NCBI RefSeq assembly: GCF_003334305.1
Contig: NZ_QOWS01000005.1
From: Escherichia coli
Lineage (GTDB): Bacteria > Pseudomonadota > Gammaproteobacteria > Enterobacterales > Enterobacteriaceae
DNA length: 64,000 bases
Direction: 5' to 3' (one strand)
A program made the position numbers and the translations under genes. This document shows positions 5,375-48,158 of the stretch, in pieces (the stretch's first letter is position 1; the number at the start of each line of letters is the position of its first letter). The notes under the pieces were generated by a model that searched no databases, was not told the DNA's origin, and saw only the letters and a program-made list of their open reading frames with translations.

Positions 5375-5400
5375 TCGGCCCACAACGACCTGTGGGCCGA
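5375..5400. terminator. hairpin between convergent pdxY and gstA
   Basis: 10-bp stem tcggcccaca/tgtgggccga, loop acgacc. Confidence 0.6.
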
Positions 5401-11247: not shown

Positions 11248-13944
<2,697 letters not shown>

Positions 13945-15984: not shown

Positions 15985-17025
15985 ATGAGCGACAACATCC
16001 GTGTTGGGTTGATTGGGTATGGTTATGCGAGCAAAACCTTCCATGCGCCCCTGATTGCGGGCACGCCCGGGCTGGAACTGGCGGTAATCTCCAGCAGTGA
16101 TGAAACAAAAGTAAAAGCCGACTGGCCAACGGTTACGGTTGTCTCTGAGCCGAAGCATCTGTTTAACGATCCCAACATAGACCTGATTGTCATTCCTACA
16201 CCCAACGATACCCATTTCCCGTTAGCCAAAGCGGCGCTTGAGGCGGGTAAACATGTGGTCGTTGATAAACCCTTTACCGTGACACTGTCACAAGCGCGAG
16301 AGCTGGATGCGCTGGCAAAAAGCCTGGGGCGTGTGCTGTCTGTATTCCATAACCGTCGCTGGGATAGCGATTTCTTGACGCTAAAAGGTTTACTCGCGGA
16401 AGGCGTGCTGGGTGAAGTTGCTTACTTTGAGTCTCATTTTGACCGCTTCCGTCCGCAGGTGCGCGATCGTTGGCGTGAACAGGGCGGCCCAGGCAGCGGT
16501 ATCTGGTACGATTTAGCACCACATCTTCTTGATCAGGCCATTACGCTTTTTGGTTTACCGGTCAGCATGACGGTAGATTTGGCACAGTTACGGCCCGGAG
16601 CGCAGTCGACCGATTATTTCCACGCCATCTTGTCCTATCCACAGCGGCGAGTCATTTTACACGGTACCATGCTGGCAGCCGCTGAGTCAGCACGGTATAT
16701 CGTGCATGGATCCCGAGGCAGTTATGTGAAATATGGCCTCGATCCACAGGAAGAACGTCTGAAAAATGGCGAGCGTCTACCGCAGGAAGACTGGGGCTAC
16801 GATATGCGTGATGGCGTACTTACCCGCGTGGAAGGTGAGGAACGTGTCGAAGAAACGCTGTTGACGGTGCCTGGGAATTATCCGGCTTACTATGCGGCTA
16901 TTCGTGATGCGTTAAATGGCGATGGTGAAAATCCGGTTCCGGCAAGCCAGGCAATCCAGGTAATGGAGTTGATTGAGCTGGGCATCGAATCCGCCAAACA
17001 TCGCGCGACTTTGTGCCTTGCATGA
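15985..17025 (+). CDS. ydgJ: Gfo/Idh/MocA-family oxidoreductase
   Basis: 346 aa from MSDNIRVGLIGYG (Rossmann N-terminus); ORF track starts 13 codons upstream. Confidence 0.85.
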   Translation: MSDNIRVGLIGYGYASKTFHAPLIAGTPGLELAVISSSDETKVKADWPTVTVVSEPKHLFNDPNIDLIVIPTPNDTHFPLAKAALEAGKHVVVDKPFTVTLSQARELDALAKSLGRVLSVFHNRRWDSDFLTLKGLLAEGVLGEVAYFESHFDRFRPQVRDRWREQGGPGSGIWYDLAPHLLDQAITLFGLPVSMTVDLAQLRPGAQSTDYFHAILSYPQRRVILHGTMLAAAESARYIVHGSRGSYVKYGLDPQEERLKNGERLPQEDWGYDMRDGVLTRVEGEERVEETLLTVPGNYPAYYAAIRDALNGDGENPVPASQAIQVMELIELGIESAKHRATLCLA

Positions 17026-17058
17026 AAAATGGATGGTGCAATTTGCACCATCCATTTT
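17026..17058. terminator. bidirectional terminator between convergent ydgJ and add
   Basis: perfect palindrome aaaaatggatggtgca-att-tgcaccatccatttt filling the gap between the two stop codons. Confidence 0.8.
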
Positions 17059-17059
17059 G

Positions 17060-18061
17060 TTACTTCGCGGCGACTTTTTCTCGCAGTGCGCGTTTTTCCT
17101 CAGCGCTGAGGAAAGCCATTTCCAGACCATTAATCTGTGCCTGGCGGATTTGCTCGCGGGATAACCCAGCAGCTGGCGCGGCAACGGTATATTCGTGAAT
17201 GATATCCACTCCCTGTACGCCGGGATCGTCAGTGTTAATGCTGGCACGAATGCCATGCTCAAGGAACGTTTTCAGCGGATGTGCAGCCAGCTCTGCTACG
17301 GTGCTGGTCTGAATATTGGAGGTCAGACAGGATTCAATACCAATTTGTTGCTCGGCGAGAAAATCCATCAGCGCCCGATCTTCAATGGCTTTTACGCCAT
17401 GTCCAATACGCTCCGCACCCAGTTCACGAATCGCCTGCCAGATGCTTTCCGGCCCGGCAGCTTCGCCTGCATGGACGGTAATATGCCAGCCCGCATCACG
17501 CGCGCGGTTGAAGTGAGAAAGGAACAGACTTCCCGGGAAACCAAGTTCATCACCGGCTAAATCAAGTGCGGTAATCTGGTCACGGTGGGCTAAAAAGGCC
17601 TCCAGCTCTTGCTGACAGGCGGCTTCGCCGAAGGTCCGGCTCATAATGCCGATAAGCTTCGCCTGCACACCAAAGGTGCGGCAACCTTCACGTACGCCAT
17701 CGATCACCGCTTCGACAACACCCGCTACAGGCAGCTGATGTGCCATTGCCATGTAGCCTGGTGAAAAACGCAGCTCGACATAGTGCAGGCCGTGACGGGC
17801 TGCATCTTCAATGTTTTCAAATGCCACGCGGCGACAGGCATCAAGAGAGGCGAGAACTTTAACGCCCCAGTCAAGTTTGGTCAGAAAGCTCACCAGATCG
17901 GGTTCGTTGGCAATGACCTGAACGTGGGGAATCAGTGTTTCCAGGGATTGTGCAGGAAGCGAGATATTATACTGGCGGCCAAGTTCAAGAATGGTCTGGG
18001 GACGAATGTTGCCATCAAGGTGGCGATGGATATCAGTTAATGGCAGGGTGGTATCAATCAT
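17060..18061 (-). CDS. add: adenosine deaminase
   Basis: 333-aa ORF recognised as Add; convergent with ydgJ. Confidence 0.9.
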
Positions 18062-28713: not shown

Positions 28714-28749
28714 AAAATAACGCCGGAGAGAAAAATCTCCGGCGTTTTG
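28714..28749. terminator. bidirectional terminator between convergent uidC and ydgA
   Basis: cgccggaga-gaaaaa-tctccggcg flanked by an A-run and a T-run. Confidence 0.8.
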
Positions 28750-28757
28750 TCTGTGAA

Positions 28758-33529: not shown

Positions 33530-35892
<2,363 letters not shown>

Positions 35893-38087: not shown

Positions 38088-38423
38088 ATGGGGCTGGTAA
38101 TCAAAGCCGCGCTCGGTGCGCTGGTAGTGCTGTTGATTGGTGTTTTAGCAAAAACGAAAAATTATTATATCGCCGGGCTGATTCCACTTTTCCCGACCTT
38201 TGCGCTTATCGCGCATTATATTGTTGCCAGCGAACGCGGCATTGAAGCCTTACGCGCAACCATCATTTTTAGTATGTGGTCGATTATTCCCTATTTTGTT
38301 TACCTGGTGTCGCTGTGGTATTTCACCGGAATGATGCGCTTGCCCGCCGCTTTTGTTGGTTCTGTTGCGTGTTGGGGGATAAGCGCATGGGTGTTGATTA
38401 TATGCTGGATAAAGCTGCATTAA
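38088..38423 (+). CDS. ydgC: GlpM-family inner membrane protein YdgC
   Basis: 111-aa hydrophobic ORF recognised as YdgC. Confidence 0.85.
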   Translation: MGLVIKAALGALVVLLIGVLAKTKNYYIAGLIPLFPTFALIAHYIVASERGIEALRATIIFSMWSIIPYFVYLVSLWYFTGMMRLPAAFVGSVACWGISAWVLIICWIKLH

Positions 38424-45146: not shown

Positions 45147-45150
45147 CCCT

Positions 45151-45172
45151 GACGGCCTCTGCGGAGGCCGTC
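45151..45172. terminator. hairpin between convergent pntB and tqsA
   Basis: gacggcctc-tgcg-gaggccgtc; overlaps the tqsA stop codon; no clear U-run. Confidence 0.5.
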
Positions 45173-47298: not shown

Positions 47299-47303
47299 TG
47301 AAC

Positions 47304-47330
47304 ACGCTGCCCGCACTGTCGGGCAGCGTT
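47304..47330. terminator. hairpin between convergent mdtI and ydgD
   Basis: acgctgcccg-cactgt-cgggcagcgt. Confidence 0.6.
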
Positions 47331-47336
47331 TGAACA

Positions 47337-48158
47337 TTATTTTTGCGACAGTTGATCCAGCTTGTCGCGAAAACCGGTAACAGAAATGGCCCGGTTATCG
47401 GCGCGCCAGCGATCTTTCGCGGCAGGAGCCGAACTTTGCACCCCAATTAATTGCCAGCCGTCATCGGTATGCAACATCAGAGGCGAACCGCTGTCACCCG
47501 GCAAGGTATCGCACTGATGTGACATCACCGACGTTTGCGCCCAGCCAGTCACTTCACAGTTTTGATGACTGTATAACGTATCGAGATGATCTTCAGGATA
47601 TCCCGCCTGAGTCACTTTACGACCAGCCGATTTTAATGCGGCAGTAAGCGCGGCTTTATCTCCCTCAAATAACGGCAACGGTGTAATGCCAGAAGGGGGA
47701 TTACGCAGCACAATCAAGCCGAAGTCCCATGGTGCAGCTGCGGGAGGAACAATCCAACCATCCCCATCTGCTTTTAACCGCTTTCCCAGTGTCGGATCAA
47801 CGCGGCCTTCTATGTCGTGGATGTCATAGCGCCAAAGACCTTTATTTGACACAAAACGCAGCGCTACCGCCTTATCCGCTTTACCCTTAGGCGGCGTCAA
47901 TAAACAGTGTCCTGCCGTTAATGCCAGATTGGGTGCAATCAGCGTCGCCGTACATAAATTGCCGCTGGCCGTTTCCAGTTGCCCAACCGCATCCCACGGT
48001 GATTGGGTCGTGTCATTCACTGGCACACGATCATCATGACCAAAAAACAGGGTGCTGACCTCATCGTTTGCCGATTTGGCAACGTCTGGTTTATCTGCAA
48101 ACACAAAAGCAGACGTCAAACTAATTGCACCCAACACTACAGCAATGGTTGTACGCAT
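47337..48158 (-). CDS. ydgD: secreted trypsin-like serine peptidase YdgD
   Basis: 273-aa ORF with signal peptide, TAGHC and GDSGSP catalytic motifs. Confidence 0.85.

Follow-up and report, generated by a model that had tools for sequence, protein, structure and literature searches.

The convergent Escherichia coli genes ydgJ and add are separated by a gap of 34 nt that consists almost entirely of one perfect palindrome, and this element is probably a compact bidirectional Rho-independent (intrinsic) terminator common to both genes. The interpretation draws support from the sequence features of such terminators, all found on both strands, from ranks of 3 and 5 among the terminator candidates of the window (the whole 64,000-nt stretch of DNA that was analyzed), and from the hairpins that occupy the orthologous gaps of related species. 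The canonical form of the terminator is predicted to vary among Escherichia lineages, and termination is predicted to be incomplete, at least in the direction of add.

The palindrome between ydgJ and add

The features at the site are as follows, in order along the window.

15985..17025, + strand: ydgJ CDS (putative oxidoreductase), stop TGA at 17023-17025 (ORF list and RefSeq annotation of matching E. coli genomes)
17022..17029, - strand: U tract of the add transcript (TTTTTCAT on the - strand), crossing the complement of the ydgJ stop; nT 3.88, d +21.9
17026..17058, both strands: whole perfect palindrome, a 15-bp RNA stem with a 3-nt loop (inverted-repeat search and folds)
17026..17029, both strands: A tract AAAA, which A17025 of the ydgJ stop extends to AAAAA (sequence and scoring)
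17030..17040: left arm of the 11-bp core stem, TGGATGGTGCA, in the best-scoring hairpin (17030-17054, dG -17.7)
17041..17043: loop ATT, variable among strains (comparison and alignment)
17044..17054: right arm of the core stem, TGCACCATCCA (inverted-repeat search and scoring)
17055..17062, + strand: U tract of the ydgJ transcript (TTTTGTTA), entering the complement of the add stop codon; nT 3.96, d +23.5
17060..18061, - strand: add CDS (adenosine deaminase), stop TAA at 17060-17062, read as TTA on the + strand (ORF list and annotation)

From stop to stop the sequence reads gca TGA aaaa tggatggtgca att tgcaccatcca tttt g TTA ctt. The gap between the convergent stops spans 17026-17059, and the palindrome occupies 33 of its 34 nt, leaving G17059 as the sole base outside. 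At the DNA level the arms (17026-17041 and 17043-17058) are 16 nt each, 100% complementary and 1 nt apart, and they form the longest perfect inverted repeat of the 64-kb window. The first-pass annotation had described the gap as a near-total palindrome flanked by A and T runs on both sides. Both descriptions hold: the perfect inverted repeat at 17026-17058 gives a 15-bp stem, with AAAA on its left (AAAAA including the A of TGA) and TTTT on its right. The left arm as it had been typed needs a minor correction: it carried five A's (16 nt), the first of which is the last base of TGA and is unpaired because it lies opposite G17059.

A chance origin of the palindrome can be ruled out. Analytically, about 5e-4 such repeats are expected per 64 kb (arms of at least 15 nt, loops of 0-8 nt), and in 30 shuffles of the window the longest arm was 8-11 nt versus the 16 nt observed. 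A folding-energy calculation, proposed in the first-pass annotation as a check, gave a stable structure on both strands, at about -22 kcal/mol and a z of about -7. Specifically, a 40-nt piece folds at -22.6 kcal/mol on the + strand and -22.1 kcal/mol on the - strand (z of -7.0 and -7.8, respectively), and the fold energy was matched by 0 of 200 dinucleotide shuffles. The core stem has 11 bp, six of them G-C pairs, and a 3-nt loop (dG -17.7 kcal/mol on either strand). Its outer edge lies 4 nt from the ydgJ stop and 5 nt from the add stop.

Terminator candidates were ranked with a hairpin-plus-T-tail score, calculated at every position of both strands, whose energy term is the ViennaRNA hairpin energy computed with a forced outer pair. 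T tails were weighted, and the discriminant was built, in the manner of d'Aubenton-Carafa 1990, and the score serves only as a rank within the window. The hairpin at 17030-17054 ranks third on the + strand (d +23.5, tail ttttgtta) and fifth on the - strand (d +21.9, tail tttttcat) among 866 candidate clusters on both window strands, only 19 of which have a d above 0. Other top-ranked sites are at expected gene ends, namely after dtpA, fumA, ydgK, and tyrS, and also between uidC and ydgA.

The sequence features of an intrinsic terminator are all present: a stable stem-loop, a U-rich tail directly 3' of the stem, and a position past the stop codons. After the core stem, the ydgJ-sense tail is UUUUGUUA and the add-sense tail UUUUUCAU, with six U in 8 nt in each case, and on both strands an upstream A tract mirrors the U tract. 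The A tract at 17026..17029, for example, lies upstream of the hairpin in the ydgJ transcript and also templates the first U's of the add tail. The layout is likewise that of a bidirectional terminator, with one symmetric hairpin, an A tract and a T tract, and a d above 0 on both strands. A consensus terminator scan did not call the ydgJ/add site because its longest stem (15 bp, extended by A:U pairs) swallows the T run. No sigma-70-like promoter was found in the gap.

These features suggest how the element may work. RNA polymerase arriving from either direction would copy the same palindrome, and the nascent RNA would fold into the 11-bp core stem, UGGAUGGUGCA paired with UGCACCAUCCA, closed by a loop of AUU or AAU. 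The U-rich tail would follow at once, and the transcript would be released by the combination of a weak rU:dA hybrid and hairpin formation. Since the A tract of one side templates the U tract of the opposite strand, the whole element reads as a 15-bp perfect palindrome. Under the usual 7-9 nt rule for intrinsic 3' ends, the 3' end of the ydgJ mRNA is predicted at about 17061-17063 (+) and that of the add mRNA at about 17023-17021 (-); the corresponding K-12 positions are about 1,703,231-233 (-) and 1,703,270-272 (+), respectively. Each mRNA would then end within the stop codon of the other gene, the two short 3' UTRs would be fully complementary, and the same hairpin would shield both 3' ends from 3'-5' exonucleases. 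That termination actually takes place at the element, and its efficiency, are what we infer from sequence and comparison.

A second palindrome lies in the 3' end of the add CDS, 35 nt from the terminator. It is a perfect, spacer-free palindrome of 20 bp at 17095-17114 (TTTCCTCAGC/GCTGAGGAAA). This one may be a chance event, as about 0.06 spacer-free palindromes of this kind are expected per window.

Other gene ends in the window

Wherever convergent genes of the window are separated by 24 nt or more, the pair shares a hairpin, and two-sided A/T tracts are restricted to ydgJ/add and uidC/ydgA. The first-pass annotation had named pdxY/gstA, uidC/ydgA, pntB/tqsA, and mdtI/ydgD as sites of similar hairpins. 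A shared hairpin is indeed found at all four, but only that of uidC/ydgA is truly similar; the other three are GC-rich with U tracts that are weak or one-sided. Apart from ydgJ/add and uidC/ydgA, the shared hairpins are as follows.

10-37: slyA/slyB hairpin, shared by a convergent pair
About 5375-5400: pdxY/gstA hairpin, shared by a convergent pair
45150-45167: pntB/tqsA hairpin, in the gap 45147-45170
47314-47339: mdtI/ydgD hairpin, in the gap 47299-47336
49126-49161: hairpin between a small KPN_01571-family gene and ynfM, in the gap 49118-49165

Most of these five lack a U tract on one or both strands. The uidC/ydgA hairpin (28721-28744, in the gap 28714-28757) consists of a perfect 11-bp stem (CGCCGGAGAGA.../...TCTCCGGCG) flanked on either side by A and T tracts. 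It ranks fourth (+22.2, + strand) and sixth (+21.1, - strand) in the window.

Four convergent pairs leave no room for a shared hairpin. The CDSs overlap by 4 nt in both fumC/tus (34930-34933) and folM/ydgC (38420-38423) and by 48 nt in clcB/ynfK-bioD (53547-53594), and those of speG/ynfC are 2 nt apart (63372-63373; annotation of strain 503025). The sequence gives no obvious indication of how the transcripts of these four pairs end.

Terminator-like hairpins also occur away from the gaps of convergent pairs. One, at 53638-53662 on the - strand (CCGGGGAGTATCAGCTACTCCCCGG followed by TTTATTGATT; score +15.6), falls within the 3' part of clcB as annotated, about 90 nt short of the stop and just ahead of the overlap with the convergent bioD-like gene. 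Another, at 13250-13276 on the - strand (followed by TTTTGTTATT; score +20.4), is within the rsx operon, about 100 nt into rsxC and just past the end of rsxB. The rsxC gene also has a region of 96-nt tandem repeats (11294-11718), in which the window has one unit fewer than strain 503025, causing a 96-nt shift in coordinates between the two.

Variation in Escherichia and other Enterobacteriaceae

The window, which is chromosomal E. coli DNA, is 99.5-99.7% identical to strain 503025 from end to end, is reversed relative to MG1655, and differs from K-12. A 701-nt region around the element is present once in 5,424 of 5,426 complete E. coli genomes. Of these genomes, 1,544 have the exact 57-nt allele, about 2,000 differ from it by one or two bases, and about 1,800 differ by more. 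In an alignment of 11 Escherichia sequences, the inner 9-bp core (GGATGGTGC/GCACCATCC) is invariant, while the A/T flanks vary among lineages and the loop together with the innermost pair is AATTT, ATTT, AATTA, or AATTG. The K-12 loop is one A shorter, resulting in a 14-bp stem with a 4-nt loop. A loop that varies by an indel and substitutions around a fixed 9-bp core fits a hairpin and misfits a protein site of fixed spacing. No covariation could be obtained from the Escherichia stems or the orthologous gaps, because the core stem is invariant in Escherichia and orthologues outside the genus are nonhomologous.

Variation in the flanks is associated with differences in score. The alleles of the window, K-12, and O157-type strains score above 0 in both senses. 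For B2/D-like E. coli, the ydgJ-sense score is +5 to +7 and the add-sense score is negative, and for E. whittamii and cryptic-clade genomes both scores are negative. We tentatively suggest, as a possibility less probable than its opposite, that the terminator is changing type within the species, with flanks that shift around a fixed 9-bp core. Flanks that offer a hairpin only, as in E. whittamii, cryptic-clade genomes, and, in the add sense, B2/D-like E. coli, would have a protective role and rely on assistance from Rho. In A/B1/E-type lineages, a small number of point changes (in one flank, AAAGG to AAAAT) would have produced matching A and U tracts, yielding an element that is canonical both ways. 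Alone, the ydgJ/add site is of little weight, being part of the core genome of the best-studied bacterium. Its series of alleles, in which a fixed stem is combined with changing A/U tracts, represents a natural test of switching between Rho-assisted and intrinsic termination via U content.

Across Enterobacteriaceae, 76 of 80 species loci have add and ydgJ in convergent orientation. Where the gap is at most 120 nt, a stable hairpin was found in 68 of 68 cases, with a median z of -4.4 and 94% of values below -2. These 68 gaps represent at least 21 unrelated sequence groups, and the hairpin of the window is confined to Escherichia. The presence of a stable hairpin in unrelated sequences points to selection for structure at this position. 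By the hairpin-plus-T-tail score, 14 of the 68 orthologous hairpins were canonical both ways, 12 one way, and 42 neither way. With 42 of 68 hairpins having no U tracts either way, it is the hairpin that is conserved, and a canonical terminator is not always present.

The gap has been filled in different ways. Leclercia (TAAGAAAAAGCCCGGCAATGCCGGGCTTTTTTTA), Phytobacter, and a single genome of Citrobacter freundii have perfect two-way terminators. Many species of Citrobacter and Enterobacter instead have one or two elements of the REP/BIME type (GCCGGATG... or GCCTGATAAG...) at this place. Within Escherichia, strain Escherichia sp. MOD1-EC7003 (L005 3503-3598) has a REP/BIME-type gap in place of the Escherichia hairpin, and further gaps of this type are those of loci L007-L015, L018, and others. 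A canonical two-way terminator is one among several solutions in the add/ydgJ gap.

Transcript ends, Rho, and known systems

Published transcript-end data were searched for the predicted 3' ends. In the curated tables of Term-seq ends from Adams et al. 2021 (PMC7815308 supp. 1 and 3), no 3' end is listed at K-12 17032xx-17033xx. This does not refute termination at the element, given the thresholds applied to the lists and the weak expression of both genes; the DirectRNA-seq data (PMC7815308) amount to about 110 reads per 800 nt, suggesting weak expression of ydgJ and add alike. The TERMITe supplements have no match at the ydgJ/add site, and a literature search returned nothing relevant on ydgJ with a terminator or sRNA.

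A Rho-dependent region antisense to ydgJ is reported at K-12 1703728 (+) with a Rho score of 4.9, and its read counts are 110 upstream and 16 downstream without bicyclomycin (BCM) versus 213 and 153 with BCM (PMC7815308 supp. 2). The region is about 460 nt beyond the hairpin on the add strand. Add-sense RNA is therefore present about 460 nt beyond the hairpin and increases when Rho is inhibited, which suggests leakage in the add direction. An antisense promoter within ydgJ could be an alternative source of the signal. On the ydgJ-sense strand, no Rho region antisense to add is listed in the same table (PMC7815308 supp. 2). Rho regions antisense to the convergent partner are also listed there for three other pairs of the window, at slyA, mdtI/mdtJ, and ynfC.

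A separate Rho-dependent region is inside add, at K-12 1702379 (+), corresponding to about position 17915 of the window. Its reads (119/101 without BCM and 108/329 with BCM; PMC7815308) suggest either that Rho ends transcription prematurely or that an internal transcript is present early in add.

The spacing between stop codons and stem may influence termination. In vivo, the lambda terminator tR2 is almost fully repressed when it is 8-9 bp from a stop codon and reaches full activity only beyond about 30 bp (Li et al. 2016, PMC4824070). At the ydgJ/add hairpin each stop codon is within 4-5 nt of the stem, close enough for a terminating ribosome to sit over the 5' arm. The first-pass annotation had called the element a textbook terminator, a description that suits its sequence features and needs qualification for the 4-5 nt spacing of its stops and for the Rho region antisense to ydgJ, which suggests read-through from add. 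We infer that some transcripts escape termination, at least those coming from add. Rho appears to end the read-through transcripts inside antisense ydgJ. In the tentative scenario of a terminator changing type, the distance at which the ribosome trails the polymerase could control termination, Rho acting as a fallback. The 4-5 nt from stop to stem represents a natural test of the occlusion of terminators by ribosomes.

The same data raise an unlikely alternative, in which the hairpin chiefly protects 3' ends. Polymerase would read through the element, Rho would stop it later, and 3'-5' exonucleases would trim the transcripts back to the stem-loop. Trimming would set the steady-state 3' end and stabilize the mRNA, maybe in the add direction only, and this reading is compatible with partial intrinsic termination. 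Rho-dependent transcripts end just past stable stem-loops that lack U-rich tails and A tracts, and terminators have been proposed to switch type through changes in U content (Dar and Sorek 2018, PMC6061677). Consistent with protection are the Rho-dependent region 460 nt beyond the hairpin on the add strand, the Rho regions likewise antisense at slyA, mdtI/mdtJ, and ynfC, and the possible repression of intrinsic termination by the nearby stop codons. A good U tract is also missing from 42 of 68 orthologues and from B2/D-like E. coli in the add sense, as in the stem-loops at Rho-type ends. The window allele, however, has the U tails and upstream A tracts typical of the intrinsic type (PMC6061677) and is within the top five candidates in both directions, and the ydgJ-sense strand antisense to add is without a listed Rho region.

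Even less probable is that the element is a bidirectional terminator of the collision type, in which the hairpin pauses polymerase and release needs head-on and trailing collisions. Convergent genes with a symmetric hairpin in the overlap of their transcripts are the layout described by Wang et al. 2022 (bioRxiv 10.1101/2022.10.23.513370). That class is described as unlike intrinsic terminators, though, and the ydgJ/add element resembles one. Moreover, at about 110 DirectRNA-seq reads per 800 nt, both genes are apparently weak, and weak transcription of ydgJ and add should make collisions rare.

It is scarcely credible that the palindrome acts not as an RNA signal but as a DNA site bound by a dimeric (e.g., NtrC-like) protein or as a REP-like repeated or mobile element. 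Its perfect symmetry would suit a dimer, and the half-sites TGGTGCA and TGCACCA resemble those of the NtrC consensus, TGCACCA-N3-TGGTGCA. They are arranged in the order TGGTGCA-ATT-TGCACCA, tail-to-tail versus head-to-head in the consensus, and their spacing varies by 1 nt among strains; an NtrC-type operator thus fails on half-site order and on the lack of fixed spacing, and between two gene ends there is no promoter to regulate. The REP-like reading draws on the REP-type elements that Citrobacter, Enterobacter, and one Escherichia species have in this gap, but the sequence is single-copy per genome and found only in Escherichia, and has no match to the GCCGGATG-type REP of orthologous gaps. 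A REP/BIME element was rejected since a search identified one locus per genome (the second match is the palindrome on itself) and no 10-mer shared with the REP-bearing gaps.

The bidirectional intrinsic terminator remains the preferred reading, and known systems differ in how closely they resemble the element so read. The Rfam scan of the window returned no family at or above its threshold. RF02056 STnc390, a Salmonella sRNA candidate, scored 23.6 bits over 17005-17064 (+) relative to a gathering score of 50, and its likeness to the element consists of a hairpin and the UUUUGUUA tail, a generic resemblance among terminators. Descent of STnc390 from the orthologous locus was rejected, as the gaps of Salmonella arizonae/diarizonae are unrelated and the consensus stem was found in 0 of 82 loci; the literature search found no mention of the name STnc390. 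Citrobacter, Enterobacter, and Escherichia sp. MOD1-EC7003 have REP/BIME elements in the same gap, and such elements have been proposed to act jointly as terminators and stabilizers in 3' UTRs (bioRxiv 10.64898/2026.03.23.713779). In contrast to them, the ydgJ/add element has a single copy, is limited to the genus Escherichia, and shows no sequence relationship to the GCCGGATG type. The SEnd-seq bidirectional class (Wang et al. 2022) shares its convergent layout but is described as collision-driven and unlike intrinsic terminators.

Rho-type protective stem-loops (PMC6061677) are alike in having a hairpin after the gene and, on the add strand, a Rho region downstream. They differ in being without the U tails and A tracts that the window allele has, and the alleles of B2/D-like E. 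coli and other Escherichia are nearer to this class in the add sense. Relative to lambda tR2, which is nearly inactive at 8-9 bp, the stops of ydgJ and add are closer, at 4-5 nt on both sides. Canonical E. coli intrinsic terminators, as defined in PMC6061677, share the stem-loop, the U-rich tail (7-8 nt by definition), the upstream A tract that often accompanies it, and the post-stop position; the ydgJ/add stem differs in being only moderately G+C-rich.

A second bidirectional terminator of this kind, uidC/ydgA, lies in the same window. There, too, a single palindrome bordered by an A tract and, on the opposite side, a T tract serves either strand, and the two sites have almost equal scores (d of +22.2/+21.1 for uidC/ydgA vs. 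+23.5/+21.9 for ydgJ/add). The ydgJ/add element is the more compact, with a gap of 34 nt versus 44 nt. Bidirectional intrinsic terminators between convergent bacterial genes are already textbook knowledge, and the ydgJ/add element is an ordinary member of them, albeit an unusually clean and compact case in which a 33-nt palindrome is predicted to serve two genes and each U tract enters the stop codon of the other.
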